The position numbers were made by a program, and so were the translations under genes. A stretch of 32,000 nucleotides of DNA from contig NZ_JAQFIQ010000012.1 in NCBI RefSeq assembly GCF_029504745.1, positions 1-32,000 on the forward strand, read 5' to 3'. The notes beneath the pieces are model-generated. The model worked only from the letters and a program-made list of their open reading frames with translations. It ran no database searches and was not told the origin of the DNA. Position 1 is the first letter of the stretch, and each line of letters opens with the position of its first letter. The stretch is from Breznakia sp. PF5-3. GTDB lineage: Bacteria > Bacillota_I > Bacilli_A > Erysipelotrichales > Erysipelotrichaceae. Below are positions 1 through 30,303 of this stretch, piece after piece.

Positions 1-186
1 TGTTTCATTTTTAATACCTGCCTTTATTCCTGTATTGTATCAATCATTCTTACATTATTTTTGTACCATTAGGTATTCTTTGGTTGAATTAAGCGTAACA
101 ATTTAAAAAATAAAATATATTCAGTTTGGAACTCACAATATAATATCTATTGCCATTCGAAAGACGGTAATGCGTTATTAGGTAGA

Positions 187-348
187 GTGTGTGCGAGAAT
201 AGAAGATCTACATACTACTACTCTCAAATCTACTGAAGAATATTCTTTGTTAGCTAAAAAAGGTGTGTTACATCAATTAGCGGATGAAAAAAAACTTGGT
301 TGGATAGAGGATTATCTTTTAAAGCTATCCGAGTATATGGAGATATAG
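187..348 (+). CDS. Small ORF abutting the next gene (53 codons from GTG 187; frame open from 88). Possible first component, or the 3' remnant of a lost effector gene.
   Basis: Hand translation of frame 1, open 88-348: ...GRVCARIEDLHTTTLKSTEEYSLLAKKGVLHQLADEKKLGWIEDYLLKLSEYMEI*. It has no ATG. The stop TAG 346-348 lies 2 nt before ATG 351. All three + frames have stops within 1-106. Confidence 0.25.
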   Translation: MCARIEDLHTTTLKSTEEYSLLAKKGVLHQLADEKKLGWIEDYLLKLSEYMEI

Positions 349-350
349 TC

Positions 351-812
351 ATGAAAGAAATTGTTAGAAAGGTAAGTTATCAAGAGTTTATATTAATAAT
401 GCTTAGATTGATTAGCTTCTTAAATTGTCTAGGTATGGGACACAAAAAAAATACTACTAGAGATAGAATGGCATTGTATGATTTTTATTTGAAATTTCCG
501 GAGTTGATAAATCAAGAAGATTATAGACCAGATTTTGATACAGAGTTTTCTTATTTTTATTGGGTACCTAATTATACTCTTTACTCTTCTGTACTAATAA
601 ATTTAGAAGCTAGAGGCTTAATTCATAAGGATGAAAATGGAAATTACTCAATAACTGAACTAGGTACTAACTTTATTGGAGATATAGAGAATCCTTATTT
701 AGATAGAACTAATAAAAACAGTAAGTTTTTGATTTCAAATATATGCAAACTTAGTAATAAAGATATAATAAGTGATATTAACAATTTAATTTATAAGGAG
801 AGGGGATTATAG
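351..812 (+). CDS. Winged-helix 'middle component'-like protein (Lamassu LmuC / ABC-3C MC-like)
   Basis: ORF track 300..812. I prefer ATG 351 (GGAGA 339-343, 7-nt spacer), giving about 153 aa. There is a MarR-like wing, LEARGLIHKDENGNYSITELG. Stop TAG 810-812 is 2 nt from ATG 815 of the ATPase. The family call rests on context and memory, not a search. Confidence 0.5.
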   Translation: MKEIVRKVSYQEFILIMLRLISFLNCLGMGHKKNTTRDRMALYDFYLKFPELINQEDYRPDFDTEFSYFYWVPNYTLYSSVLINLEARGLIHKDENGNYSITELGTNFIGDIENPYLDRTNKNSKFLISNICKLSNKDIISDINNLIYKERGL

Positions 813-814
813 TT

Positions 815-2695
815 ATGAAAATGTTTATGAAAGCTTTTCGATTAACTGGAGATAGTAAAAATTATGAAGTAAATTTTAAAAGAGGTTTGAATTTTATATC
901 AGGTCCAACTTCTACAGGAAAATCGACAATACTTGAACTGATTAATTATGCATTAGGAGCAGATTCACACAAAAATTACATTGAAGTTCGTGAGAAATGT
1001 AAAGATGTTGAAATTGAAATTTTATTAAATGATACACTTTTTAGAATTCGAAGAAAATTATTTAGTCCAGATCTTCCAATTTTAGTAGAAATCTATGATA
1101 TAGATAGTAAGTCATTTGTTAAAAATGGTGTTTATTATGAAAATCCTGTGGATGGACAAGAAACATTATCTGATTTTTTATTATCAAAAATTGGGTTAGA
1201 TGGACTTACTATTGCAAACCAAAGATTCAGTTTTCGTGATTTATTTAAATATTCGTACTTAAAGCAAACAGAGATAGACAATGAGGACATATTTAATGCA
1301 GAAAAGAATTATATTTTAGATATTAAGCGAAAAGCGACATTTGAAATTGTATTTAGTATCTATAATAATCTAATTGGAGAACTTAAGGTAAGATTAAAAG
1401 AAAAGAAAGAAGAACTAAATAATGATAGAATTAAATACAATGGGATATCTGAATTTTTAAAAACGGCAGATATAAATGATTTTAACGAGATTGAAATTAA
1501 TAAAAACAAAATTATAGAAGAAATTAAAAACTTAAAAACTCAATTACTTAAAATCAAATCTAAATCTTATGAAGAGTCTGAGAATAAATATGTTAAGGAG
1601 TTAAATGAAATAGTTAGAACTAATAAATTAGAATTAATAAAATTAGACAAGCAATTAGATAATCAAAAACAATATATAAAAAAATTGTGTCAACTTTCAA
1701 ATCAATATGATAGAGATGTAGAAAAAATTGATGCAGCAAGGGTAGGAATTAATGAGATAAATAAATATGATTTTATATATTGTCCTAATTGCTTAAAACC
1801 TATAGCAAAACATGAGGGTATGGATTGTCAATTATGCGGTAATGAAATGAACGAAGTAATGGAAAATATATTATTACTTAAGTCAGAACGAAGTAGTGTA
1901 ATTAGAAAAAGGAATGAATTAGACAAACATATAAAAGAGCAAAGTGTAAAAAAGGAGTTTATCGAAAAAGAAAAGAAACAATTATTAGAAAAAATTGAGA
2001 TTAATAATCGCACAATTAATGAATTAACTGAGCAATTTATTAATCCCTATCTAGAAGAAATAAGCTTAATAAATTTAAAGATTGGAGAGAAGTATAAGGA
2101 ATTAGATGAATTAGAAAATAGTTTAAGATTTATTAAAGAATTAAATAGATTGACTATACTTTTAGAGCAAAAGAAAAAAGAAGTTGACGATCTAAATGAG
2201 CAAATTAAATCAAAATCAGCAGCTGTTGATAAAAAAGACATACTTCATAATTTGTCAAATAAGTTTAGTGATATTTTACAATCATTTAGGTTTCCAAAAT
2301 TAAGTGATTCATATATAAACACTACTAATTATTTACCCTATGTTAGAGGGAATAAGTATAATGATATCGGTAGTTTAGGAGCAGTTACTTTAATAACTAT
2401 GGCATATTATTTATCAATATTTATTGAATCAAAATCACCTGATTTTAATCATTTAAATTTATTAATGATAGATACTCCACGTAAAAACTTAGGGTCTTCA
2501 TCAACAGAAAAAGACTTTCAAGATGATGAAATATATTATGCAGTTATTCGTTATCTTATACAAATATGTAAAGATAATGAGAATGATATTCAATTGATTA
2601 TTGTTAATAATGGCTATCCTGAATTTTTACCTAAAGAAGATTTAATAATAGAGTTTTCATCAAGTGGAAAAAATGGATTAATAGATGATATTTAA
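815..2695 (+). CDS. SMC/Rad50-like ABC ATPase with a long coiled coil and a CxxC...CxxC hook (Lamassu LmuB / ABC-3C ATPase-like)
   Basis: - Walker A GPTSTGKST at nt 902-928.
- A K/E/L/N-rich heptad-like region of about 300 aa.
- CPNC-N13-CQLC at nt 1781-1837, mid coiled coil.
- C-terminal head with LNLLMIDTPRKNLG (Walker-B-like, nt ~2455-2490).
- 626 aa in total. Confidence 0.65.
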   Translation: MKMFMKAFRLTGDSKNYEVNFKRGLNFISGPTSTGKSTILELINYALGADSHKNYIEVREKCKDVEIEILLNDTLFRIRRKLFSPDLPILVEIYDIDSKSFVKNGVYYENPVDGQETLSDFLLSKIGLDGLTIANQRFSFRDLFKYSYLKQTEIDNEDIFNAEKNYILDIKRKATFEIVFSIYNNLIGELKVRLKEKKEELNNDRIKYNGISEFLKTADINDFNEIEINKNKIIEEIKNLKTQLLKIKSKSYEESENKYVKELNEIVRTNKLELIKLDKQLDNQKQYIKKLCQLSNQYDRDVEKIDAARVGINEINKYDFIYCPNCLKPIAKHEGMDCQLCGNEMNEVMENILLLKSERSSVIRKRNELDKHIKEQSVKKEFIEKEKKQLLEKIEINNRTINELTEQFINPYLEEISLINLKIGEKYKELDELENSLRFIKELNRLTILLEQKKKEVDDLNEQIKSKSAAVDKKDILHNLSNKFSDILQSFRFPKLSDSYINTTNYLPYVRGNKYNDIGSLGAVTLITMAYYLSIFIESKSPDFNHLNLLMIDTPRKNLGSSSTEKDFQDDEIYYAVIRYLIQICKDNENDIQLIIVNNGYPEFLPKEDLIIEFSSSGKNGLIDDI

Positions 2696-2722: not shown

Positions 2723-2860
2723 AAAATGATACTAAATTGATACTATTTTCTTGTCAAAAAACATATAGGTAGTATAATAACTATAGGAAATAGTAATAAA
2801 AGCAACCAAAACTAAACAAATATGTTTAACATTCATTCGGTATTATCGAGTGGGAATAGA
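2723..2860 (+). repeat. Direct repeat copy 1 (promoter plus conserved transcribed element), upstream of ktrB
   Basis: Hand alignment to 5277-5415 gives 13 differences, including one 1-nt indel, over about 138 nt. Contains hairpins taaaca-aata-tgttta (2813-2828) and cattcg-gtattat-cgagtg (2834-2852). Confidence 0.85.
2727..2778 (+). promoter_or_regulatory. Sigma-A-type promoter with an upstream hexamer direct repeat (copy 1)
   Basis: TGATACT at 2727-2733 and 2738-2744 (11-bp period). -35 TTGTCA 2751-2756, 16-nt spacer, -10 TATAAT 2773-2778. Confidence 0.6.
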
Positions 2861-3023: not shown

Positions 3024-4406
3024 ATGACTTCTACGCTAAAAAAAATAATAAAATTAGATGGGTTTTCCCCATCACAGAAGATAGCGATAAGCTTTGTAGT
3101 AGTAATTGTACTAGGAGCATTTGCTTTAATGCTACCAATTTCGAATGTTGATGGGAAGTATTTTTCATTTATTGATGCACTCTTTATGTCTACTAGCGCA
3201 ACATGTGTTACAGGACTCGCTGTTGTGCCTCCCGCTATACAGTTTACTACTTTTGGACAAGTGGTTCTTCTATTGCTAATTCAAATTGGTGGTTTGGGTT
3301 TGATGAGTATGGTTGCGAGCATTGCTCTTAGTATTAGAAAAAAACTCTCTATTCAAAACAAGTTAGCTATGAGAGAGATGTTAAATCAAACAAATATGTT
3401 GGATTTTAGAAAATTTCTTTTCGGAATCATTCGTTTTACTTTTGTTTTTGAAATTATTGGTACAATTATATTATCATTTGCATTTGTTCCTGAATATGGT
3501 TTGAAGGGGATTTATATCTCAATATTTACTTCAATTTCTGCATTCTGTAACGCAGGATTTGATATTATTGGTAGTAATAGTTTAGTGGAGTATGTAAATA
3601 ATCCAATTGTGAATTTTACAGTAATGATTTTAATTATTGCAGGTGGATTAGGGTTTATAGTATATTTTGATTTGAGAGATAAGTTCAAAGATTTTTTCAG
3701 AGGTAAGCTTTCATTTATAAGGTTAAAACAGCGACTGATGTTACAGACAAAAATTGTAATTGTTATTTCTGCGATTTTAATTTTTATTCCAGCATTACTA
3801 ATTTTTATTATAGAATTTAATAATCCTGCAACATTAGGTAATCTGGGAGTTGATGGTAAAATTTATGCTTCATTATTTAGTTCAGTAACTCTGAGAACCG
3901 CAGGGTTTGCAACGCTTGATTTTGCAGGTTTCTATCCAGTATCTCAATTTATTATGATAATTTGTATGTTTATTGGTGGCTCACCTGGAGGGACAGCAGG
4001 AGGTATCAAAACAACCACTCTTGCAATTATACTGATCAATGTTATTTGTAATATTCGAGGTCAAGAAAAGACATCAATTTTTCATCGTCATATATCACGC
4101 GATCTCATTGTACGATCCACGACGATATTGGTAATAAATCTTGGTGTATTATTCCTTGGGATTTTTGGGTTGCTAATAGTTTGTGATTTTGATTTTATAA
4201 CAATTATATTTGAAGCAGTATCAGCATTAGCAACTGTTGGATTAACTTTAGGGATTACAACACTATTACCAACAATTGCAAAGATAATCGTTGTTGTTTT
4301 AATGTATGTAGGTAGAATTGGTATTTTGACATTTTTAGTTTCAATTATAAGACAGGAAACTAAAAAATCTGTTGATTATGCTGAAGGAAATATTATGATT
4401 GGATAG
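3024..4406 (+). CDS. ktrB: KtrB/TrkH-family potassium uptake membrane subunit
   Basis: 460 aa, polytopic. Repeated pore-loop-like glycine motifs (IQIGGLG, FCNAGFD, TAGF, GGSPGGTAGGIKT) are typical of the Trk/Ktr family. Immediately followed by ktrA. Confidence 0.9.
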   Translation: MTSTLKKIIKLDGFSPSQKIAISFVVVIVLGAFALMLPISNVDGKYFSFIDALFMSTSATCVTGLAVVPPAIQFTTFGQVVLLLLIQIGGLGLMSMVASIALSIRKKLSIQNKLAMREMLNQTNMLDFRKFLFGIIRFTFVFEIIGTIILSFAFVPEYGLKGIYISIFTSISAFCNAGFDIIGSNSLVEYVNNPIVNFTVMILIIAGGLGFIVYFDLRDKFKDFFRGKLSFIRLKQRLMLQTKIVIVISAILIFIPALLIFIIEFNNPATLGNLGVDGKIYASLFSSVTLRTAGFATLDFAGFYPVSQFIMIICMFIGGSPGGTAGGIKTTTLAIILINVICNIRGQEKTSIFHRHISRDLIVRSTTILVINLGVLFLGIFGLLIVCDFDFITIIFEAVSALATVGLTLGITTLLPTIAKIIVVVLMYVGRIGILTFLVSIIRQETKKSVDYAEGNIMIG

Positions 4407-4416
4407 GAGAATAAAT

Positions 4417-5085
4417 ATGGTAAAGCAAAATAAACAATATGCAATATTGGGTTTAGGAATTTTTGGTTCTACAATAGCAAAAACTTTGAGCAATGCGAAT
4501 TGTGAAGTAATTGCTATTGATAAAGATATAGAGAGTGTACAACGCCTTGCAGATTGTGTCACAAGTGCAGTAAAAGGGGATATAACAGATATAGAAGTTT
4601 TAAGAAATGCTGGAGTGGGAGAATGTGATATTGCAGTTGTAGCAGTCGGTTCACATCTTGAAGAAAGCATTATGGCTGTTTTTAATGTACGGGAACTTGG
4701 CGTTCCTTTTGTTGTAGCGAAGGCAAAGAATAAACGCTATATGGAAGTTCTTAAAAAGGTAGGGGCACATAAAGTGGTACGTCCTGAAAAAGAAATGGGT
4801 GTAGTAACAGCAAAATCTCTGTTAAATGATAATATAATTGAGCGCATTGCATTTGATAATGATTACTCTGTAATAGAAATTAATACTCCCAAAATATGGG
4901 TCAATAAAACGCTGATTAATTTGAATTTGCGCGATCAATACGGGATCAATATTTTAGGAATTCGACGTCCAGATGAAAAAATGAATGTCACACCTTCTCC
5001 AGATTACATATTACATGCAGATGATCATATAGTATTAATTGCAGAATCCGAAAATTTAGAAAAACTAAATATACTTTTTAAGTAA
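4417..5085 (+). CDS. ktrA: KtrA/TrkA-family RCK (NAD-binding) regulatory subunit
   Basis: ORF track 4399..5085. I prefer ATG 4417 (AGGAGA 4405-4410). Rossmann motif ILGLGIFGSTIAKTL, with a C-terminal RCK_C-like region. Confidence 0.9.
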   Translation: MVKQNKQYAILGLGIFGSTIAKTLSNANCEVIAIDKDIESVQRLADCVTSAVKGDITDIEVLRNAGVGECDIAVVAVGSHLEESIMAVFNVRELGVPFVVAKAKNKRYMEVLKKVGAHKVVRPEKEMGVVTAKSLLNDNIIERIAFDNDYSVIEINTPKIWVNKTLINLNLRDQYGINILGIRRPDEKMNVTPSPDYILHADDHIVLIAESENLEKLNILFK

Positions 5086-5276: not shown

Positions 5277-5415
5277 AAAATGATACTAATTTGATACTGT
5301 TTTCTTGTCAAAAATCGTATAGGTAGTATAATAACTATAGAAAGTAGTAATAAAAGCACCCAAAAGTTAAACAAATATGTTTAATAATCATTCGGTATAA
5401 TCGAGTGGGAGTAGA
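5277..5415 (+). repeat. Direct repeat copy 2 (promoter plus conserved transcribed element)
   Basis: See copy 1. The same two hairpins are present (stem 1 is 7 bp here; loop 2 is gtataat). Confidence 0.85.
5281..5332 (+). promoter_or_regulatory. Sigma-A-type promoter with an upstream hexamer direct repeat (copy 2)
   Basis: TGATACT at 5281-5287 and 5292-5298 (11-bp period). -35 TTGTCA 5305-5310, 16-nt spacer, -10 TATAAT 5327-5332. Confidence 0.6.
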
Positions 5416-6947: not shown

Positions 6948-7163
6948 ATGTCAATGAAACTTAGTAATTCACTATATATACACCTTCATAGAATTGATAT
7001 TGAAGGAAATGAATTATATGTTCAACTAGTAGATGATTACAAAAAACAAAGAAATATCACAGAAGAGTTGAAAGTTAATAAACCATTTGAATGGGTTAGA
7101 GAAATGAATAATATAAATAATTGTATTGAAGAATTAATTATAAAAGAAATAATTAATATTTAG
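6948..7163 (+). pseudogene. 3' fragment of a TnpV-like (Tn4451-type accessory) gene
   Basis: 71 aa. ...ELKVNKPFEWVREMNNINNCIEELIIKEIINI matches the C-terminal signature of TnpV-like proteins as I recall them. The N-terminal half is missing. Confidence 0.45.
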
Positions 7164-7375: not shown

Positions 7376-7831
7376 ATGAATAACAATGACGTACATAGTT
7401 TATCACACAGTAAATGGTGCTGTAAATACCATATAGTATGGGCACCGAAATACAGGAGGAAAGTATTTTACGATAGTAAAAGACTAGAAATAGGAAAGAT
7501 AATAAGAGAACTTTGTGAATGGAAAGGGGTAAACATACTAGAAGTAGAAGTATGTATAGATCATATACATATATTAGTTGAAATCCAACCAAAATATAGT
7601 ATTTCAGGATTTATGGGATATTTGAAAGGAAAAAGTAGCCAAATAATATATGAAAAATGGGGGAATATGAAATTCAAGTATCGAGGTCGCTCTTTCTGGT
7701 GTAGAGGATACTATGTAGATACAGTAGGGAAAAATACAAAGAAGATAACGGAGTATATACAAAATCAGTTGAAAGAGGACCGGGAGGCAGAACAACTAAC
7801 AATGGATTTGAAGGACCCATTTGGAAAATAA
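7376..7831 (+). CDS. tnpA: IS200/IS605-family Y1 (HUH) transposase TnpA
   Basis: 151 aa. KYHIVWAPKYRRKVF, HUH motif DHIHILV, and a C-terminal tyrosine region ITEYIQNQ. Confidence 0.95.
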   Translation: MNNNDVHSLSHSKWCCKYHIVWAPKYRRKVFYDSKRLEIGKIIRELCEWKGVNILEVEVCIDHIHILVEIQPKYSISGFMGYLKGKSSQIIYEKWGNMKFKYRGRSFWCRGYYVDTVGKNTKKITEYIQNQLKEDREAEQLTMDLKDPFGK

Positions 7832-7946: not shown

Positions 7947-8825
7947 TTATATCTCTACAAAATAAGGACGAAGTTGTTCAATTTGTTTCCTATCTAAGGT
8001 AATAATAAAATGTGATTCATCAAATCTAGGTAGGTTAGATAAATCCAATACTTCTTTTAATGTATTGAATAGTATATGCCCTTCTAAATGGGGTTCACCA
8101 GCAAAAGATACAATTCCAATGTACCAATCATTTATGTCTAAATCATCTGACATAATAGGAAGTGCAGGTTCGTCTGGGAAAATAGAATCAACACCTTCTG
8201 ACAAAGTGAAAAATCCAACTAACTTATCATTGTCTATTTTATAAACTTTAGCTTTCGCATAGTATAAATCCTGATTTTGCTTCTCATGTAAATATTCCTC
8301 AAAAGCAATTACTTTGTTTTCTTCATCTAAATCTATGATGCTTTGTATAAAGTTTTCTTCCACATGAAGTGGATAAAGCGCACCAAAGGTATAACCAAAT
8401 TTTTTATCTTTCACAAAAGAATCCAATACATTACCAACCCAGTTCATTGTGTAGTTTACTTTTTCAGGAATATCTTCAAGCGTTAGGGTTTCTCCATCAT
8501 GATCGAATTTTTGAATACCCATCATTTTACATAATCGTTTTGTACATTCATAAAAATCTTCAATATCATGATAAGTACAAGGTACATTCAAATTCAGATT
8601 GATTGTTCTTTCACTACTTATATACTGTAAGCTAAATCCTCTACCTATTTTTTTAGGATCATAGAAAATAATATATGTATCTTCAAATTCACCTTCAAAA
8701 TCACTTAGAATAAATCCTACATCACTAATGCCATATGCATAACCATGAAGTGCATTCGTGATATCCGCAAAGGTGAATTTCTTTTTTATTAATTTTGTTT
8801 GTTTTAAATGTATATCTAGTGACAT
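7947..8825 (-). CDS. Hypothetical cytoplasmic protein (possibly DUF4299-like; unverified)
   Basis: 292 aa, with no TM segment or signal peptide. Overall resemblance to DUF4299 proteins is from memory only. SD GGAGGG lies upstream. Confidence 0.6.
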   Translation of the reverse strand: MSLDIHLKQTKLIKKKFTFADITNALHGYAYGISDVGFILSDFEGEFEDTYIIFYDPKKIGRGFSLQYISSERTINLNLNVPCTYHDIEDFYECTKRLCKMMGIQKFDHDGETLTLEDIPEKVNYTMNWVGNVLDSFVKDKKFGYTFGALYPLHVEENFIQSIIDLDEENKVIAFEEYLHEKQNQDLYYAKAKVYKIDNDKLVGFFTLSEGVDSIFPDEPALPIMSDDLDINDWYIGIVSFAGEPHLEGHILFNTLKEVLDLSNLPRFDESHFIITLDRKQIEQLRPYFVEI

Positions 8826-8887
8826 AAAACCCTCCTGTTAATGTTCGCTTTGTTGATTTAACTATATCATAATTTTTATCCACATAA

Positions 8888-8914
8888 AGAAAAAAGTCCA
8901 AATTGCATTGGACT
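8888..8914 (-). terminator. Rho-independent terminator after the ABC permease gene
   Basis: The stem pairs 8895-8901 (+ strand AGTCCAA) with 8908-8914 (+ strand TTGGACT). On the minus strand it is followed by TTTTTC. Confidence 0.65.
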
Positions 8915-8923
8915 ATAATACGT

Positions 8924-10495
8924 TTATTCAGCAGCATATGCGTTTCCATTCATCATTGGTGAACAGATGTAGAATATAAGTAAACTTAGTGCTAAATTAA
9001 ATACTATAAGGGTGGGAATTAATACGGTAATAGTTTGACTAAAATCACCTGTCATTTTAAATGCCAAGTAAGCAATACCACCACTAGGTAAGCAGATAAC
9101 TACCATTACAAGCATATGTAGCATGGATTCAATAAGTTTATTTCCTCTACTTTTTAGTAATCGAGTTGACAATACAACTCCTGCATAGAAGACAGGAATA
9201 AATGATAAAGTGATTAGAATACCAATGAGCGTTTCCGTTAGTTTCAAATCAACGAAGATAAAACCAATTAGTATCATTGTAACTGCAAAGAGTGTTGATT
9301 TTAATGCAGGAATCAATAATGAGTAAAGCATTTTTTTGATTGGTTTATCAGGAATAAAATAAATATAATTATTTTTAAGATCATCACTTAGAGTAGAATT
9401 TCCTACGGAGTTCATCAAATAAAATATTAATAACCCAAAGAATACATAAACATTTGGATTAATCATTAACGTAAATACTGCTAAGGCGATAAAACTATAT
9501 AAGTCTTGTCTACCAATAAAAGAACGAGTTTTTTTCATAATTAGAAAGTTCTTAGAAAGAATTGCACCACTTAATTGCTTATAGTTAATTGTTACATCAT
9601 GTATTTTTTCTTCTTTTGATTCAATTCCAGCCATCGCTTTTTTATAGTAATCACTAAAGTCTATAGCATCAATCATCGCTTGCTCATAGAAGTAACCTTT
9701 AACGTGTGTTAGTAAAGCTGCTAATATAATATCAATTACAATAAATGCAGCTACTACAATCAAAACAATAAGGGTATCATTTTGATAAAAACCAAACATT
9801 GCAGTTTTAATCCAACCTAAGATGGGAATAAAATCGAAATCATTTGTATACGTGAAATTCACAAAAATATCAGTGAAATTAAAACTACTTTGAAAATAAC
9901 TATATATTGCATAAGCTACTAAAATAATGAAAATACATAATCCAATCCAACGCTGTGTGTTTCCTTTTTTTTCTTTAATCATATCTTTAATATAGAAGTA
10001 TTGTAGTAATACTAAAATGATATAGTTATAAAGAGCTGTAATCAGAAAAGCAAAAAGAATGTAGGTAATTGGCATAATAGCCATCATTGATATAATCATC
10101 ATTGGAGATACTATACTTATTAAACTTAATATAAAGGAATCAAACATTGTTTCAACTGATAAGTATGATAGTATTTGACGATTTGAGAAAGGACCTACAA
10201 ATAAATAGTAAGAATCTTCCTCAAAAAACAATGCTTTCTTTTTTTGAAATAAGGTAATTAGATTTAAGAAAGTGGAAAATCCAATTACAAATAAAGTAAA
10301 TAGTGAATAAGTCAAAAGATCCATTACAGGTTTATCTCTTGTATCAAATACTGGGAAAAACATGCTTGCAAACACCAGCAATGAAAGCAGTGTTGCTATT
10401 GCTGAAGATGGTTTCGCAAAGATACTTCTTACTTTTGCTTTTTTCTTAGTGAAAAATAGTTTAAATAAGTTCTTCATGTTCTTTGTCCTCACCAT
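8924..10495 (-). CDS. Large polytopic permease of the 'putative ABC exporter' type
   Basis: 523 aa with more than 10 predicted hydrophobic helices. It overlaps the 3' end of the ATPase gene. An alternative start is ATG 10477. Confidence 0.7.
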   Translation of the reverse strand: MVRTKNMKNLFKLFFTKKKAKVRSIFAKPSSAIATLLSLLVFASMFFPVFDTRDKPVMDLLTYSLFTLFVIGFSTFLNLITLFQKKKALFFEEDSYYLFVGPFSNRQILSYLSVETMFDSFILSLISIVSPMMIISMMAIMPITYILFAFLITALYNYIILVLLQYFYIKDMIKEKKGNTQRWIGLCIFIILVAYAIYSYFQSSFNFTDIFVNFTYTNDFDFIPILGWIKTAMFGFYQNDTLIVLIVVAAFIVIDIILAALLTHVKGYFYEQAMIDAIDFSDYYKKAMAGIESKEEKIHDVTINYKQLSGAILSKNFLIMKKTRSFIGRQDLYSFIALAVFTLMINPNVYVFFGLLIFYLMNSVGNSTLSDDLKNNYIYFIPDKPIKKMLYSLLIPALKSTLFAVTMILIGFIFVDLKLTETLIGILITLSFIPVFYAGVVLSTRLLKSRGNKLIESMLHMLVMVVICLPSGGIAYLAFKMTGDFSQTITVLIPTLIVFNLALSLLIFYICSPMMNGNAYAAE

Positions 10496-11174
10496 TTAAT
10501 TCAAAAAACAGTTCTTTGAGTGATTTATCTTTTAACTCATTACGTTCAATATCGGCTAATACATGCCCCTGTTTCATAATGATTGCATGATCCCAAACAT
10601 CATCCACCATATCAATGATATGGGTACTCATCAGAATACTAACACCGTTATCTTTTAGTGTCTTTAATATTTGTAAAGTATCCTGAATACTGTTAGGATC
10701 CAAACCCATCATAGGTTCATCTACCAGCAATGCTTGAGGATTTGTCATAAGAGCTAAAATCATTGATAACTTTTGACGCATTCCTTTTGATAATTCTTTT
10801 GCGATGGTCTTTTTCTTTTCCATCAGTTTGAATAATGTAAGATATTTATCAGCAATTTGTTGGTAGTTATCAATCTGATAAGCATTACCAATAAAATCTA
10901 TATGTTCTTGGATTGTAAGTAAGTCATATAATACTGGTGTCTCTGGAATATATCCAAAACGTTTTTTCGCTTCTACACTCATATTATCGAAACTGCATAT
11001 TTTAATACTTCCTTTGAATTTTAATAACCCAATGATACTTTTTATTGTTGTACTTTTACCTGCACCATTTGATCCTAATAAAATAGTTATTTCTCCTGGT
11101 TTTGCAACTAATGATACATCATTTGCTCCAATTACTTTTCCATAGTCTTTTGTAAGATTTTTAACCTCTATCAT
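10461..11174 (-). CDS. ABC transporter ATP-binding protein
   Basis: Walker A GSNGAGKST, signature LSKGMRQKL, Walker B LLVDEP, H-loop STH. SD GAGGAG. Confidence 0.95.
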   Translation of the reverse strand: MIEVKNLTKDYGKVIGANDVSLVAKPGEITILLGSNGAGKSTTIKSIIGLLKFKGSIKICSFDNMSVEAKKRFGYIPETPVLYDLLTIQEHIDFIGNAYQIDNYQQIADKYLTLFKLMEKKKTIAKELSKGMRQKLSMILALMTNPQALLVDEPMMGLDPNSIQDTLQILKTLKDNGVSILMSTHIIDMVDDVWDHAIIMKQGHVLADIERNELKDKSLKELFFELNGEDKEHEELI

Positions 11175-11215
11175 AATTTTTTCTCCTCAATATACATCTA
11201 GTCTATCAATTCTAT

Positions 11216-11258
11216 ATAAAAAGAATACAAATCTGTCCTAAATGGTAGATTTGTATTC
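11216..11258 (-). terminator. Rho-independent terminator after the response-regulator gene
   Basis: A 12-bp perfect stem, GAATACAAATCT (11223-11234) with AGATTTGTATTC (11247-11258). On the minus strand it is followed by TTTTTAT. Confidence 0.8.
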
Positions 11259-11269
11259 CTAAATTACTT

Positions 11270-12010
11270 CTATAATGATAATTCTTTGAGGAGTTTCTTT
11301 CCTTTTCTGGATAATAGACAGAAGGTATTATTTTTCAATTCTACCTTATTATCTGCAAGATAAATGGTTTGTATATTATCTGTGTTAACTAGAAACGAGC
11401 GATGAATTCGTAAGAATTGAGTGCCGCCAATCGTCTCTTCAATTTCTGATAGTTTTCCAAAGAACTCCAATGTTTCCTGTTCTGCATGCATGATAATTTT
11501 ATGTTTGGAAGCAGATGTTTCAAAGAACATAATTTCCTTAATTGGAATATGATAGACACGATCTAATATTTTAATTTGATAATAAGGGTTGTAACTATCG
11601 TTTTCATTTGACAAGCGCTCCTGAATGCTTTCTAGACACACAGCGATACGTTCTTTGATTGTATCAAGATTACCCTTTACAATGTAATCCATCGCTTCAA
11701 TACGATGCCGAAAGGTCTCAAATGACAACTCTTCATGAGAAGTTATGAAGATAATAAAACCTCTTGGATCAAGTTCACGAATTTTCTTAGCTAAGGTAAA
11801 ACCAGTATAAGTATCATCATTTAAATCAACATCCAAGAAGTATATATTTGATACGTGATTACCAGCAATTTCATCCACAATTTTGGTTGGCTTATTTGTT
11901 GCAAGACCAATCTGCATATCCAGATTATTAATCGTTATATAGTTATCAATTGTTGTTTCAATAAAAGAGCACATTTTTGCCTCATCTTCACATATATATA
12001 CAGATATCAT
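11270..12010 (-). CDS. LytTR/AgrA-family response regulator (REC + LytTR DNA-binding domain)
   Basis: ORF track ..12013. The second ATG (12010) sits 6 nt after AGGAGG. REC acidic residues (CEDE, FLDVDL). C-terminal LytTR signature FLRIHRSFLVN. Confidence 0.9.
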   Translation of the reverse strand: MISVYICEDEAKMCSFIETTIDNYITINNLDMQIGLATNKPTKIVDEIAGNHVSNIYFLDVDLNDDTYTGFTLAKKIRELDPRGFIIFITSHEELSFETFRHRIEAMDYIVKGNLDTIKERIAVCLESIQERLSNENDSYNPYYQIKILDRVYHIPIKEIMFFETSASKHKIIMHAEQETLEFFGKLSEIEETIGGTQFLRIHRSFLVNTDNIQTIYLADNKVELKNNTFCLLSRKGKKLLKELSL

Positions 12011-12020
12011 CATATACCTC

Positions 12021-13856
12021 CTATTTCTGAATGGTTAGTTCTTGTATAAATAAATTATCACGAATCTTGGTACGAGTTATCACATTGCTATAAGCACCAA
12101 TAATTTTCTTATAATTGAATAATCCAATTCCACGATCTTTGCCTTTACTGGAATATCCATATTCATAAATGTTTTTTAAATTTGTATCAACATTGCATAA
12201 TACATTATTGATATTAATATAAATAGAATCACCTTCATCTAAAAAGATAATCGAAATTTTAGCGTTATCACTATTTATAGATTCTTCAATTGCATTATCT
12301 AATAGGATACCCAGAGAGCGAATCAAATCAATATTCGCTATAATTGCAGAGTGAATTGGATAAATTACCTCTAGTTTAAATGGAATCTTCATTTGAATCA
12401 TCTGTGAACATTTCATTAAAAGTAAATTCTTAACCTCTGGTATTTTAATATTGTGAAGTGCTTTCAAACTTGAGTGATAATTTGAATTATTAGGCAAGCT
12501 AGTAATTGGTTTGCCAATAAATGCTTCAATTTTCTTAATTGTTGTATTATTTACTTCATTAGATAGATAGTTCAATAATGTTTGATAGTATTCGTGCATG
12601 GCAACAATTGAGTGTTTAGCAGTTGATGTCATTTCGAAATAGTATTGTTGAGAAAGCAATAAATCTTGTTGCAATTGTTCATTTTGTAAGTTGATAATGA
12701 TGGTTGAAATCCCACAGATAAAAACAGGAATTAACAACAATAAAATAATGATAACAAAAATAACAAATTGAAATAGATTTTTTTCAATATTATGATACAA
12801 CATCTGAGCTGTTACCATACCTAAAATACTACAGAAGAAAATAATAAAGAATCGATGGTATTGAAAGAAATTATGAAACGCTTTTTTTAGGTTTTCCTTT
12901 GTTAAGAAAGAACGAATAGGGTAAAGATTTACATTCAATTGTTTTGAATTATCATCCAAGTTAAAGGATTGCGATTTAGATAAAGCTTTTTCTACTATAT
13001 CATGTAATTGTTCAGTATTTGTGTTTTTATATTCTAATAGAAAAGAAGTAATCAAGTTTTTAATATCATGTTTCAAGGAATATAATTCTATTTGCATTTC
13101 ACTAAGCTCATTGATATGAAAGTTTTGTTGATCAACAATTGCTTTCTGTAATTCTAGTTTCCTTCGATTATTTTGCATGATAATCACAATGATGAAGATA
13201 ATTGTAATTAATAGTAAGAATACAAATCCAATAATAAGATTTGCTTCAGCAGAAAGGGGAAGGATTGGATAAAAAACAAATATCATTTCATGCATATTCC
13301 ACCCCCCTACACAAATAATCGTTGTGATAAGTTTCCTTTGTTTTGTTTTGAATAATAATTCTGTATGAGTTGAAAGCGAATATTTAGTAAAAATATGTGC
13401 TAATGCTAGTCCAAATAATGATGAGATAGAATGTATGATTATATTATAGTAGGATGCTGCAATTCCTTCTATTGGTATAGAAAAATGATTTATGATTAAA
13501 AGGCTTGAATAGGAAACCATAGTATGAAATGTATTCATACAATACAAAGTAAACCCAAGAGCAGAAAGAATTTTCCATGCATTGTGATAATAACGATATA
13601 AGATAATTGCTATAAAGATGAATTGGATCGAATAAGTGGCTAAGGCAAAGGTGAAAGGATATTTTACATAAAGAATGTCATATAAATCTGTCAAAAGAAA
13701 AATGTAGTTGAAAGCAATCTGTATAATTACAAACACAATCGTACTTAAAAACCATCCTTTTTTATGAAAGATAGGTGATAAAAGCTTCATTGTGCTATAT
13801 ATCCATGATGCGCCAAAGATTGCAGATATAAAGAATCCTTCTAGCCAAATATTCAT
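12021..13856 (-). CDS. AgrC/HPK10-like GHKL sensor histidine kinase with an extra internal 2-TM module
   Basis: - 611 aa.
- Polytopic N-terminus (aa 1-227).
- H-box-like LKHDIKNL (H263, nt 13068-13070).
- Two further TM helices (aa ~333-388).
- A second H-box-like AMHEYYQTL (H421, nt 12594-12596).
- N-box LLDNAIEE (aa 518-525) and G-box SKGKDRGIGL. Confidence 0.85.
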   Translation of the reverse strand: MNIWLEGFFISAIFGASWIYSTMKLLSPIFHKKGWFLSTIVFVIIQIAFNYIFLLTDLYDILYVKYPFTFALATYSIQFIFIAIILYRYYHNAWKILSALGFTLYCMNTFHTMVSYSSLLIINHFSIPIEGIAASYYNIIIHSISSLFGLALAHIFTKYSLSTHTELLFKTKQRKLITTIICVGGWNMHEMIFVFYPILPLSAEANLIIGFVFLLLITIIFIIVIIMQNNRRKLELQKAIVDQQNFHINELSEMQIELYSLKHDIKNLITSFLLEYKNTNTEQLHDIVEKALSKSQSFNLDDNSKQLNVNLYPIRSFLTKENLKKAFHNFFQYHRFFIIFFCSILGMVTAQMLYHNIEKNLFQFVIFVIIILLLLIPVFICGISTIIINLQNEQLQQDLLLSQQYYFEMTSTAKHSIVAMHEYYQTLLNYLSNEVNNTTIKKIEAFIGKPITSLPNNSNYHSSLKALHNIKIPEVKNLLLMKCSQMIQMKIPFKLEVIYPIHSAIIANIDLIRSLGILLDNAIEESINSDNAKISIIFLDEGDSIYININNVLCNVDTNLKNIYEYGYSSKGKDRGIGLFNYKKIIGAYSNVITRTKIRDNLFIQELTIQK

Positions 13857-16697: not shown

Positions 16698-17687
16698 ATG
16701 AAAAAATATTTAAGTATAGTATTGATGATAACAATACTAGCATTAGTGGGGTGTTCCTCGGAGGAAGCGGCTAAAGTTATTACCGTAACAGATAATCAAT
16801 TTGATTCGCAAAGTTACCATAATGCACTCGCAAAAATTGTTGTAGAAAATGGGTTTGATGGCTATGAGCTTGAAGTGTCCACTGGTTCATCTACTATGAA
16901 TTGGCAGTCAATTATTTCAGGAGATATTGATTTAGACATTGAAAGTTGGACTGGTAATGTTGCTACATATGAAAAAGATAAAGAAAACGGAGACATTGTT
17001 GATATAGGTGTATTAGTACCTGATAGTCAGCAAGGTTTTTATGTTCCAAGATATGTAGTTGAAGGGGATAGTGAAAGAGGGATTAAAGCAGTAGCTCCCG
17101 AGTTAAAAACAGTAAAAGATTTAGAAAAATATCCTGATTTATTTGTAAATGATGAGAATCCTGATAAAGGAAGAATTTATGGTGGGATAGCAGGTTGGAT
17201 GATTGATGAAACTTTGTATGCTAAATTTCTATATCATGGATTAGATGCACAATATGAGTACTTTCGTTTAGGTAGTGAGTCAACTTTATTTGCATCATTG
17301 GTAGCAGCATACAACAAAGGGGAACCATGGGTTGGTTATTGTTATGAACCAACATGGGTAGCTGGAAAATTGGATTTGATTCGTCTTACAGATGCTCCAT
17401 ATGACCCTGAAACATATCACAAAGGAGGCTCTGATTTCCCTTTACAAGAATTAAAGATTGTAAGTAACAAATCTTTTAAAGATGATTATCCTGAGTTGGT
17501 AGATTTCTTTAGTAATTATCAGACTGGTAGTGATATTGTAAATGAAGCACTGGCATACATGGATGACAAACAAGCAACTTATGAAGAGGCAGCTATATGG
17601 ACGTTAAAAGAACATCCAGAACTATTGGATGCATGGTTAAATAAAGAACAAGCAGACAAAGTAAAAGAATATATAGGTAAAAAATAA
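16698..17687 (+). CDS. opuAC: Glycine betaine/proline-betaine ABC transporter substrate-binding lipoprotein
   Basis: 329 aa. Lipobox LALVGC. OpuAC-like periplasmic-binding fold inferred from sequence and operon context. Confidence 0.85.
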   Translation: MKKYLSIVLMITILALVGCSSEEAAKVITVTDNQFDSQSYHNALAKIVVENGFDGYELEVSTGSSTMNWQSIISGDIDLDIESWTGNVATYEKDKENGDIVDIGVLVPDSQQGFYVPRYVVEGDSERGIKAVAPELKTVKDLEKYPDLFVNDENPDKGRIYGGIAGWMIDETLYAKFLYHGLDAQYEYFRLGSESTLFASLVAAYNKGEPWVGYCYEPTWVAGKLDLIRLTDAPYDPETYHKGGSDFPLQELKIVSNKSFKDDYPELVDFFSNYQTGSDIVNEALAYMDDKQATYEEAAIWTLKEHPELLDAWLNKEQADKVKEYIGKK

Positions 17688-18562
17688 TGTCTCTCTTGGA
17701 AATCGCATCTTCATTTCCAGAAGAATGGAAGGTTAATATAGGAGATGCTGTGGATAATTTTATTAAATCTATCAGTATAAAATATCAGGCATTCTTTGAT
17801 GCAATCAAAGCAGCAGGTATTTGGATTGTCAATTCTATCAATAGTATACTTATGATGATACCATGGTGGTTATTTATTATTTTAATTGTTGCATTAACAT
17901 ATTATGTAACTAAAAAAGTAAGAACATCATTATTATATGGGGGATTGATTACACTTATAGGTTTTTTTGGATTATGGTCACATATGATGGAAACGTTGAG
18001 CATTGTAATTACTTCAGTAGCAATATCATTATTATTAGGATTTCCATTAGGTGTCCTAATTGCATTAAGTAAGAAAGCAGAAAAAATTATAAGACCTATT
18101 TTAGATATGATGCAAACAATGCCAACCTTTGTCTATTTGGTTCCTGCAGTTATTTTATTTGGAGTAGGAAAGGTACCAGCAATTATGGCAACAACAATTT
18201 ATTCTATTGTTCCTATGATTCGAATGACAAATCATGGAATATCACATGTGGATAAAGAAGTGATTGAAGCAGCAAGAGCTTTTGGTTCAACAACAATGCA
18301 AACCTTATTAAAGGTGCAGATACCACAATCATTATCGACTATCATGACAGGGATGAACCAGACATTGATGATGGCGATGTCTATGGTCGTTACATGTTCG
18401 CTAATTGGTGCAAATGGATTGGGAATGGAAATTCTTGTTGCCACAAATCGAACGGAAATGGGAAAAGCTTTATTGCCAGGACTTGCAATCGTTTTTCTTG
18501 CGATTATATTAGATCGGCTAACCCAAGGAATAGTGAAAAAGAGTGAGAAGATATATGAATAA
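17687..18562 (+). CDS. opuAB: Glycine betaine ABC transporter permease
   Basis: 291 aa, polytopic. TAATG overlap with opuAC. ProW/OpuAB-like EAA-loop region (EAARAFGST). Confidence 0.9.
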   Translation: MSLLEIASSFPEEWKVNIGDAVDNFIKSISIKYQAFFDAIKAAGIWIVNSINSILMMIPWWLFIILIVALTYYVTKKVRTSLLYGGLITLIGFFGLWSHMMETLSIVITSVAISLLLGFPLGVLIALSKKAEKIIRPILDMMQTMPTFVYLVPAVILFGVGKVPAIMATTIYSIVPMIRMTNHGISHVDKEVIEAARAFGSTTMQTLLKVQIPQSLSTIMTGMNQTLMMAMSMVVTCSLIGANGLGMEILVATNRTEMGKALLPGLAIVFLAIILDRLTQGIVKKSEKIYE

Positions 18563-19727
18563 TCATGATATTATACGCGTAGAATCAATAAGTAAAGTTT
18601 TTAAAATGAATAAAACTGCACAAAAGTTAATTGATAAAAAAGAAAGCAAAGATATAATTTATGAAAAATCAGGAGCGATTGTCGCTTTACAGGATGTTAG
18701 TTTTAATGTAAAGCGAGGCGAGACCTTTTGTATAATTGGACTATCTGGTTCAGGGAAATCAACGCTTATACGTTGTCTTATTGAACTTGTAAAACCAACA
18801 AGTGGAAAAATTTATATGAATGATATTGATGTTTTATCTTTATCAAAAAAAGAATTGCTTGAATTTAGACGATAACAGGTATCGATGATATTTCAAAGTT
18901 TTGGTTTGATGTCCCATCGTGATGTTATTGGAAATGTAGCATATGGTCTTGAGGTAAAAGGTGTACCCAAAGAAGAACGTTTAGAAAAAGCGAAAGAAAT
19001 GATTTCTATGGTTGGTTTAGATGGATTTGAGCATGAAAGAATTGCAAATTTATCAGGTGGAATGAAACAGCGAGTTGGAATTGCACGAGCACTTGCCAAT
19101 AAGACAGAAATTCTTCTTATGGATGAGCCATTTTCAGCGTTAGATCCATTAGTAAGAAAAGAAATGCAATTTGAACTTTTAAAGATTCAAAAGAAACTAA
19201 ATAAAACAATTGTTTTTATTACGCATGATATGGATGAAGCATTCAAATTAGGAGATCGTATAGCGATTATGCAAGATGGGAAGATTATTCAAATTGCAAC
19301 GCCTGAAGAAATGTGTGAAAACCCAGCAAATGAATATGTAAGAAGTTTTATTGATAATACGGATAAAACAAAAATATTCAGTGCTAAAAATGTAATGATC
19401 AATCCAAACTGTGTGGCAAAATATAATGATTTTCCAATTATTGCTTTAAGAGAAATGAAGAATGCTCAAGTATCAAGTGCTTATGTGGTAGATGAACAAA
19501 TGCATTTAAAGGGAATTATTACATTAGAAGATACGATAAGAGCAAAAAATGAGAATTTACAAATTGAAGATGTATTGATTGAAATATTTTCTGTATCATT
19601 AGATACATATATTACAGATTTGATTGATACAATGACAATATCTAAATATCCACTAGCAGTTATTGATGAAGAAAAGCAATTACAAGGAATTCTAACAAAA
19701 GTAAATGTTTTATCTTTATTAAAGTAG
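18555..19727 (+). pseudogene. opuAA: Glycine betaine ABC transporter ATPase with tandem CBS domains, interrupted by one in-frame TAA
   Basis: The two ORFs (18543..18875 and 18885..19727) are in the same frame. The sequence reads ...ELLEFRR*QVSMIFQSFGLM, with TAA at 18873-18875 where ProV/OpuAA proteins have K. Walker A GLSGSGKST lies before the stop; LSGGMKQR and LLMDEP lie after it. Confidence 0.8.
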
Positions 19728-29580: not shown

Positions 29581-30303
29581 TTAAAACAATTTTTTGCCAT
29601 CTAAAATATTTATGTTTAATGTTTTTGCTAACGTAGTTTGTTTAAAGGGGTTTATTTTCTCAACAACCCCATCACGTTTGAAAAAGGTTCCTGTACTTTT
29701 AAACCAAAAAGTAACGTTTGCTTTTACACATTGTTCACGAATACTAAGAATCCAATCATAATTGCATTCTCTTGCTTCTTTGCCGCTTTCTCCACTTACT
29801 GTAACATGATCAACACCATCAAGATAAGGAGTTAGATCAATTGCTTCTAACATTGGCGAACAAGATATGAATTTTCTTTTCATAGGATAAGAAAGAAAGA
29901 GTGGTAATCGGTAATCGGCGATAGCCTGCGTTTCAACTGTACAACCTATATTCACGTTGTCATATCCATCTTCCCAATCATCAGGAAGTGATTCCATAAA
30001 GCGATCAATTCGTTTCGTTAGAATCAAAAAATCAATATCTTGTCGTTGCTTTATCATTGCCCATACTTCTTTACGCCATTCATCAGCTTCCGGAAGAAAA
30101 AAATCAGTGGCAAAGCAGGTTGCTAAGATTTTATCACCTTTAATATTGTATTCACCATTGGCTTTTTTTCTTATTGGCCAATCAAACTTATCGGTTTTTG
30201 TGATCGTATTTTGTCCATATCGTTTGGCATGAGGTCCATAAAAATAACAATGCGAACAACCATCACTTATCATATAACATCCACTCCATGGTTCCCAGTT
30301 CAT
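29581..30303 (-). CDS. DUF5131 (phage Gp37/Gp68-like) family protein
   Basis: 240 aa. The N-terminal WEPWSGCYMISDGCSHCY matches the Cys-rich start of the family as I recall it. Confidence 0.6.
   Translation of the reverse strand: MNWEPWSGCYMISDGCSHCYFYGPHAKRYGQNTITKTDKFDWPIRKKANGEYNIKGDKILATCFATDFFLPEADEWRKEVWAMIKQRQDIDFLILTKRIDRFMESLPDDWEDGYDNVNIGCTVETQAIADYRLPLFLSYPMKRKFISCSPMLEAIDLTPYLDGVDHVTVSGESGKEARECNYDWILSIREQCVKANVTFWFKSTGTFFKRDGVVEKINPFKQTTLAKTLNINILDGKKLF

Follow-up and report, generated by a model that had tools for sequence, protein, structure and literature searches.

The closest described counterparts of the locus examined here are the short-type Lamassu (LmuACB) systems, in which the C-terminal domain of the effector LmuA is gripped by two LmuB coiled coils together with LmuC and drives the tetramerisation that switches the nuclease on, mutations at the LmuA interface either abolishing defence or causing hyper-toxicity (PMC12663957; bioRxiv 10.1101/2025.03.14.643221). 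In an intact system, an LmuB dimer and LmuC would hold one LmuA monomer by its C-terminal domain; the sensing of DNA ends would free LmuA, which would then form a tetramer through the same domain, activating its PD-(D/E)xK nuclease and aborting the infection. A short-Lamassu clade lacking the LmuA effector domain, 'clade O', has also been reported (Haudiquet et al., 2025, PMC12663957). Here we describe a short Lamassu operon at the very start of a 32,000-nucleotide (nt) stretch of Breznakia sp. PF5-3 (contig NZ_JAQFIQ010000012.1, positions 1 to 32,000; hereafter the window), which an earlier reading of this DNA (the original prediction) had taken to be a Lamassu/ABC-3C core without a recognisable effector. 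Very probably, the effector only looks absent because an insertion sequence (IS) of the IS1595 family has landed in codons 236-238 of lmuA, where its transposition doubled the octamer TAACAATT.

The effector slot and the missing half of lmuA

The three reading frames of the operon follow one another with gaps of 2 nt, TAG at 346-348 preceding ATG at 351 and TAG at 810-812 preceding ATG at 815. The frame in the effector position, which ends at 348, is open from 88 over 86 codons and contains no ATG, with a GTG at 187, and stops occur in all three forward frames within 1-106, as the original prediction had described. Contrary to its conclusion, an effector can be recognised. The 86-codon frame (88-348) matches the PADLOC LmuA profile PDLC03851 (E 3e-19, profile positions 253-335 of 343), has matches below the Pfam threshold to CTD6, CTD7 and CTD8, all C-terminal domains of ABC-3C effectors, and shares 62-71% identity with intact LmuA homologues over their residues ~236-318, the homology starting at window nt 97. 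This remnant of lmuA encodes the final three helices, and part of a fourth, of the LmuA C-terminal domain. A protein search with the 86-amino-acid (aa) fragment alone returned no match, there being too few shared words.

Intact versions of the operon were found in three related loci, which also hold the closest LmuB homologues (55-69% identical, full length): [Clostridium] innocuum (JAKTLI010000001.1), Listeria booriae (JAARRV010000001.1) and the Logan contig SRR27904279_263, from an uncultured relative. All three comprise an intact lmuA (317-319 aa), lmuC (153-163 aa) and lmuB (626-627 aa) in an equally tight arrangement, so that the comparison of effector slots suggested by the original prediction reveals a full LmuA in every case. 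These 317-319-aa proteins match PADLOC LmuA PDLC03851 with E ~1e-65, bear an ABC-3C C-terminal domain at their C-termini, and show weak matches to Mrr_cat as well as matches to the Avs2 N-terminal nuclease.

The remaining 236 codons of the Breznakia gene lie on a different contig. Using residues 1-235 of C. innocuum LmuA as query, the protein search retrieved P0125 from Breznakia sp. PF5-3, which has 247 aa and matches the query along its entire length at 70% identity. Its gene closes contig JAQFIO010000041.1, in the assembly (GCA_029504715.1) that also encodes the identical LmuB, and likewise lies at a contig end in GCA_029504775.1. This protein, here LmuA', tracks LmuA until ...EGLKAYNN and diverges afterwards, consisting of 236 native residues followed by 11 encoded by the IS. 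Positions on the sequence of JAQFIO010000041.1 (contig 41) are given below with the prefix L009, the contig ending at L009 11179.

Both junctions can be read in the DNA. On contig 41, ...GCTTA-TAACAATT is followed directly by CGCTTAATTCAACTAAGGAATACCTAA (in short form, TAACAATT then CGCTTAATTCAAC), while in the window TTAGGTATTCTTTGGTTGAATTAAGCG runs up to base 95 and is followed by TAACAATT-TAAAAAAT (in short form, GTTGAATTAAGCG then TAACAATT). The target duplication agrees at 8/8 positions on both sides, and the 27-nt repeat at 69-95 agrees with the reverse complement of L009 10710-10736 at 25 of 27. Joining L009 10001-10709 to window positions 104-348 yields a 954-nt in-frame open reading frame (ORF) of 317 codons, stop-free inside, which reads GCTTATAACAATTTAAAAAAT across the restored target site without the IS; the identity of the reconstructed LmuA to the LmuA of the three intact loci is 70%, 67% and 58%. 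Together, the paired inverted repeats, the 8-base-pair (bp) duplication and the restored ORF point to transposition into lmuA. The insertion is probably recent, judging from the full length of lmuC and lmuB, the perfect target duplication and the absence of stops from both lmuA halves. Among the options that the original prediction had listed for the empty slot, deletion or decay of the effector came closest, the gene being disrupted, although by an IS; a new minimal partner is rejected, the slot holding the 3' end of the effector gene; and the third option was right in placing the rest of the gene outside the window and wrong in ending the effector at 104-106 instead of 348. A partial effector gene ending at 104-106 proved to be a frame-2 gene call inside the IS end.

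Table 1. Features of the Lamassu locus and its surroundings, in window coordinates (nt)
Feature	Position	Strand	Basis
Very probable right end of an IS1595-family IS, with 27-nt terminal inverted repeat at 69-95	1..95	-	Match to L009 and to MAG contig ends
8-bp target-site duplication TAACAATT	96..103		Same octamer at L009 10702-10709, directly before the other inverted repeat
lmuA 3' remnant, codons ~236-317 and stop, no start codon of its own	96..348	+	PADLOC, homologue alignment, splice
lmuC, middle component (ABC-3C MC2 family), intact, 153 aa	351..812	+	Pfam MC2, PADLOC LmuC, C. innocuum alignment
lmuB, short-type SMC/Rad50-like ATPase, intact, 626 aa	815..2695	+	PADLOC LmuB, homologues, motifs
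LmuB Walker A GPTSTGKS (aa 30)	902-925	+	Motif inspection
LmuB double CxxC zinc hook, CPNC (aa 323) and CQLC (aa 338), mid-protein	1781-1837	+	Motif inspection
LmuB Walker B-like LLMIDTP (aa 549-555)	2459-2479	+	Motif inspection
att-like direct repeat, probable right boundary of the island	2724..2752		26/29 positions identical to L009 4899-4927

The 27-nt inverted repeat also occurs at two contig ends of an uncultured Erysipelotrichaceae metagenome-assembled genome (MAG), and the point at which these ends cease to resemble the window, exactly base 95, fixes the boundary of the IS. On the minus strand of the window, an ATG at 8-6 (ATGAAACA...), preceded by a purine-rich stretch and reading off the contig, is the probable start of the transposase, whereas L009 10710-~11085 encodes, also on the minus strand, the transposase C-terminus (...LVYTDGAFCYDQL...HLNTLNSVHSLIK...*). 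The C-terminal 77 residues match Pfam DDE_Tnp_IS1595 with 36.9 bits against a gathering score of 27; with NCBIfam transpos_IS1595 the piece, being a fragment only, reaches 51.5 bits (E 1e-13), below the 75-bit cut-off. The pieces at hand amount to 95 nt of one end of the IS and ~470 nt of the other. Window positions 1-110 had no BLAST match in plasmid or phage collections, and the transposase piece had no tblastn match among plasmids; a scan of the genome collection with the inverted repeat returned the two contig ends of the one MAG and no complete IS, and the repeat was not found in the metagenome scan.

Members of the IS1595 family typically generate direct repeats of 8 bp that are rich in A/T, often break draft assemblies and frequently insert within genes (PMC12561309). 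The element in lmuA resembles members such as ISApl4 and IS1016 in its ISXO2/IS1595-type DDE transposase, terminal inverted repeats and A/T-rich 8-bp duplication, but its inverted repeats bear no sequence relationship to those of ISApl4, and the copy is incomplete and possibly defective. The last catalytic residue is apparently N (HLNTLNS) instead of E, which corresponds to the DDNK signature of the IS1595 subgroup.

The position of the window itself reflects the same repeat. Base 1 of the window is base 1 of contig JAQFIO010000012.1 (GCA_029504715.1) and hence a contig end; the two sequences differ at a single base across 12,695 (position 7587, inside a Y1 transposase gene), and an identical LmuB protein is encoded there at the same coordinates, 815-2695. 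Two independent Logan assemblies begin 68 nt further in than the window. That all these assemblies break at one spot points to a repeat at the window start, and the break of the assembly in the IS repeat is the reason why the window opens at a contig end. The 236 codons for the nuclease domain and for half of the C-terminal domain would thereby have been placed on another contig by short-read assemblers. Assemblies of isolates from the Joint Genome Institute are presumably made by SPAdes with a largest k of 95, which would explain why the distance from the window start to the IS boundary is exactly 95 nt. Four NCBI protein accessions, from unclassified Breznakia assemblies, represent LmuB, and four represent the LmuA' fragment.

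LmuB, LmuC and the predicted effect of the insertion

Profile searches place both complete products in the Lamassu family, in agreement with the original prediction of a Lamassu/ABC-3C core. The 153-aa protein matches PADLOC LmuC PDLC03869 (E 7e-22) and scores just above the gathering threshold of Pfam MC2 (28.8 against 26.9 bits), and its gap-free alignment with C. innocuum LmuC, which spans all 153 residues, shows 59% identity. The 626-aa protein matches PADLOC LmuB PDLC03862 (E 3e-163) over profile positions 6-641 of 643, is 68-69% identical to 626-aa homologues across 100% of its length, and is weakly similar in sequence to 9hqu_A, a Lamassu LmuB of solved structure (E 0.002). From the full-length alignment to the hidden Markov model (HMM) and the weak alignment to 9hqu_A, we infer a coiled coil in LmuB. 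The coordinates previously given for the three chained frames and for the 153-aa and 626-aa ORFs all check, and the description of the ATPase stands as regards its length, the Walker A motif, LLMIDTP and the two CxxC motifs; the spacer between the latter is, however, 11 residues (CPNC-LKPIAKHEGMD-CQLC) and not 13. The earlier view of IDTP as a Walker B variant is likewise sound, LLMIDT (aa 549-554) agreeing with the consensus of short Lamassu, hhhhD[Q/S/T/E] (PMC12663957). Taken together, the features of LmuB, LmuC and the LmuA fragment are far beyond chance.

A housekeeping identity for the ATPase, which the original prediction had itself raised as a challenge, was rejected: the NCBIfam matches to RecN, SbcC, Rad50 and SMC amount to 15-30 bits against cut-offs of 300-1000 and are confined to the P-loop region, so that no such family comes near its curated cut-off. 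Many close LmuB homologues from Listeria, Enterococcus and Lactococcus are publicly labelled 'DNA recombination protein RecN' or 'SbcCD ATPase subunit'; judged by HMM, these proteins are LmuB and the labels are mis-annotations.

The fold of the effector was approached through an AlphaFold2 model of the LmuA homologue P0123 (mean predicted local distance difference test score 81), which comprises an alpha/beta domain (residues 1-~150), a disordered linker (175-189) and a helical C-terminal domain (192-316). The best matches of this model in the PDB are the LmuA chains 9nxx_D (E 2e-4), 9uxh_C, 9ny5_A and 9uxi_A, followed by the PD-(D/E)xK nucleases EcoT38I, the Avs4 N-terminal domain and Cap4; sequence searches of the PDB with LmuA and LmuC gave noise only. 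G45-D46-G48-D50 and Q64-x-K66 are invariant across 47 LmuA homologues, which indicates a D...QxK active site. As modelled, LmuA is a PD-(D/E)xK (Mrr-like) nuclease with a helical C-terminal domain.

In the P0123 model, the insertion falls at residue ~238, within helix 227-252 of the C-terminal domain. The system is predicted to be dead because the IS splits the domain needed for docking and tetramerisation: the 247-aa LmuA' can probably neither dock to LmuB2C nor oligomerise, and lmuC and lmuB would be cut off from the operon promoter by the IS. The Lamassu system is thus most likely inactivated, with a predicted loss of protection against phages and plasmids, while lmuC and lmuB have not yet decayed.

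The island at guaA and alternative explanations

Contig 41 carries, in order, guaA, two helix-turn-helix (HTH) genes, a tyrosine integrase, two NikA-like genes, a relaxase, TnpV and lmuA'. The repeat at L009 4899-4927 lies 56 nt after the guaA stop, just before the block running from the HTH genes through integrase, NikA, relaxase and TnpV to lmuA'. Its counterpart in the window (2724-2752) starts 29 nt past the lmuB stop, and a third copy (5278-5306) follows ktrA. The recurrence of the guaA-side repeat after lmuB suggests that the Lamassu operon is cargo of an integrative mobilizable island at guaA, and the repeats resemble att sites left there by islands that integrated in tandem or in series. 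The C. innocuum Lamassu copy similarly sits between guaA and relaxase genes on one side and unrelated cargo on the other. The cargo status fits the lower guanine-cytosine (GC) content of 96-2695, at 25.3% against 30.6% in the rest of the window; the A/T-richness noted in the original prediction is real, but only modest.

Several further observations concern these repeats and their neighbours. The core of ~29 nt, AAATGATACTAnTTTGATACTnTTTTnTT, occurs three times, after guaA, lmuB and ktrA. The two copies in the window extend to ~62 nt (2724-2785 and 5278-5339), including a promoter-like site, TTGTCA-16-TATAAT, and flank the potassium-uptake genes ktrB and ktrA (3024-5085). A TnpV gene (6948-7163) adjoins a Y1 (IS200/IS605-type) transposase gene (7376-7831), and its DNA is 76% identical to the TnpV just upstream of lmuA' (L009 9316-9663).

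Some points weigh against an IS1595-family insertion as the complete account of the locus and against the loss of function predicted from it. The adjacency of the two contigs is inferred, no contig or read crossing the IS, and an empty-site (uninterrupted) allele was not found in the scan of the metagenome collection. The IS is incomplete: its transposase frame is lost at L009 ~11085, ~375 nt into the element as counted from its left end, and contig 41 closes with 95 nt (L009 11085-11179) that are non-coding and resemble the edge of a second repeat, so that the insert may be nested, rearranged or larger than a simple IS. As for function, the predicted loss is drawn from structures of distant homologues (~10% identity), and the promoter scan was uninformative, with 15 matches against 24 expected from shuffles.

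The irregular interior of the IS, in which the transposase frame is lost, would also suit a more elaborate history, in which the IS insertion was followed by recombination between IS copies, and an inversion or translocation moved the lmuA halves far apart in the chromosome. The halves lie on separate contigs in all assemblies, and the repeat is evidently multi-copy, since it breaks assemblies. Such a rearrangement is nevertheless unlikely, because the island reads as a single unit over the two contigs (attL, HTH, integrase, NikA, relaxase, TnpV and lmuA', then 'lmuA, lmuC, lmuB and the att repeat) and the matching target duplication is the trace of a simple insertion. If it had occurred, the outcome for lmuA would be unchanged.

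We give a slight probability to the idea that the IS is a reversible off-switch for a potentially self-toxic nuclease, precise excision restoring lmuA, or that it leaves a working effector-less LmuB-LmuC sensor of DNA ends. Such a sensor, possibly including the 53-aa fragment, would act with another effector and represent a natural intermediate toward the effector-domain-less clade.

A functional effector-less or minimal Lamassu, in which LmuB and LmuC operate with a 53-aa product started at GTG 187 or with an effector in trans, appears very improbable. Such a system would accord with the intact, full-length lmuC and lmuB and with the short clade reported to lack the LmuA effector domain (PMC12663957), and GTG 187 could in principle serve as a start. 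However, the start of the fragment coincides exactly with the IS inverted repeat and target duplication and falls midway along a helix of the C-terminal domain, and the fragment lacks an ATG and has no convincing ribosome-binding spacing; moreover, the remaining lmuA is present elsewhere in the same genome, all close relatives possess a full LmuA, and the search with the 86-aa fragment, limited by its few shared words, found no free-standing homologue. Lastly, although draft assemblies break at repeats for many reasons, it is scarcely credible that lmuA is intact in most cells and that the junctions stem from a subpopulation or from chimeric graph paths, given that both junction contigs recur in four NCBI assemblies and several SRA-derived ones, that no intact Breznakia LmuA was found in the protein search, and that an exact 8-bp duplication with paired inverted repeats marks real transposition and not a chimera.

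Other features of the window and comparison with known systems

Three further gene groups of the window lie apart from the Lamassu locus. A glycine-betaine transporter operon comprises OpuAC (16698-17687), a permease (17687-18562) and an OpuAA-like ABC ATPase (18543-19727), the last split by an in-frame TAA (18873-18875) into a Walker A half (18543-18872) and a part with the rest of the ABC domain and the CBS domains (18885-19727); this gene is either a pseudogene or the product of a sequencing error. The minus strand of 7947-13856 encodes a DUF4299 protein, an ABC_export permease, an ABC ATPase, a LytTR response regulator and an HATPase_c_5 histidine kinase, a block that looks like a quorum-sensing and export module of the Agr or bacteriocin type. 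A DUF5131 gene is found at 29581-30303 (minus strand), and another a few kilobases downstream of the C. innocuum Lamassu island (L004 10571-11293), a co-occurrence that is probably a coincidence.

The locus raises no new mechanistic question. It does call for caution, as an effector-less defence operon at a contig edge may have been cut by an IS, its other half ending another contig, and it adds one further example of a mobile element inactivating a costly abortive-infection system. It also draws attention to a divergent Lamassu lineage with an Mrr-like D...QxK nuclease and a double-CxxC LmuB, which resides on mobilizable islands linked to guaA in Erysipelotrichaceae, Listeria and Enterococcus.

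Compared with the three intact loci, the Breznakia operon agrees in protein sizes, its proteins being 55-70% identical to theirs, and it shares with the C. innocuum copy a position beside guaA and a relaxase gene, but in all three of them lmuA is uninterrupted and free of an IS. On sequence criteria, it is a short Lamassu of ordinary architecture, belonging to a divergent lineage with many relatives in Bacillota. Five of six sequence-level characters of short Lamassu are present, among them an LmuB ATPase with Walker A, a Walker B, a predicted central coiled coil with CxxC motifs, whose number in short Lamassu is zero, one or two, and an lmuC placed between the other two genes. The remaining character, an intact LmuA, is missing only through the IS and would be supplied by the reconstructed lmuA (317 aa).

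Clade O offers the nearest precedent for LmuB and LmuC standing intact beside an LmuA without its effector domain. The Breznakia locus differs in that the split is a recent one caused by an IS, the remnant, which has no start codon, retains only half of the C-terminal domain, and the genome contains the effector half at another place. Membership of clade O was rejected on these grounds: no ATG is available, homology begins in mid-domain at the IS junction, and the effector half belongs to the same genome.

With the short-type LmuACB systems, represented by DdmABC/Vc-Cap4 of Vibrio cholerae, LmuACB of Salmonella enterica and the DefenseFinder subtypes Lamassu-Mrr and Lamassu-Cap4, the locus shares the order lmuA-lmuC-lmuB with abutting or overlapping genes. 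Its LmuB, at ~600 aa, is of similar size and has the Walker A (Gx4GK[ST]), Walker B (hhhhD[T]) and CxxC zinc-hook motifs, its LmuC is of the MC2 family, and LmuA combines an N-terminal PD-(D/E)xK domain (GDGGID...QCK) with a helical C-terminal domain, its fold matching the solved chains 9nxx, 9uxh and 9ny5. In contrast to the structurally characterised systems, the sequences are very distant (LmuA ~10% identity; LmuB E 0.002 against 9hqu), the Breznakia LmuB has two CxxC motifs where the V. cholerae protein has none, and the catalytic triad of LmuA in the Breznakia lineage is D...QxK (Mrr-like) and not ExK. What sets the locus apart from the known short-type systems above all is that its lmuA is interrupted, very probably by an IS.

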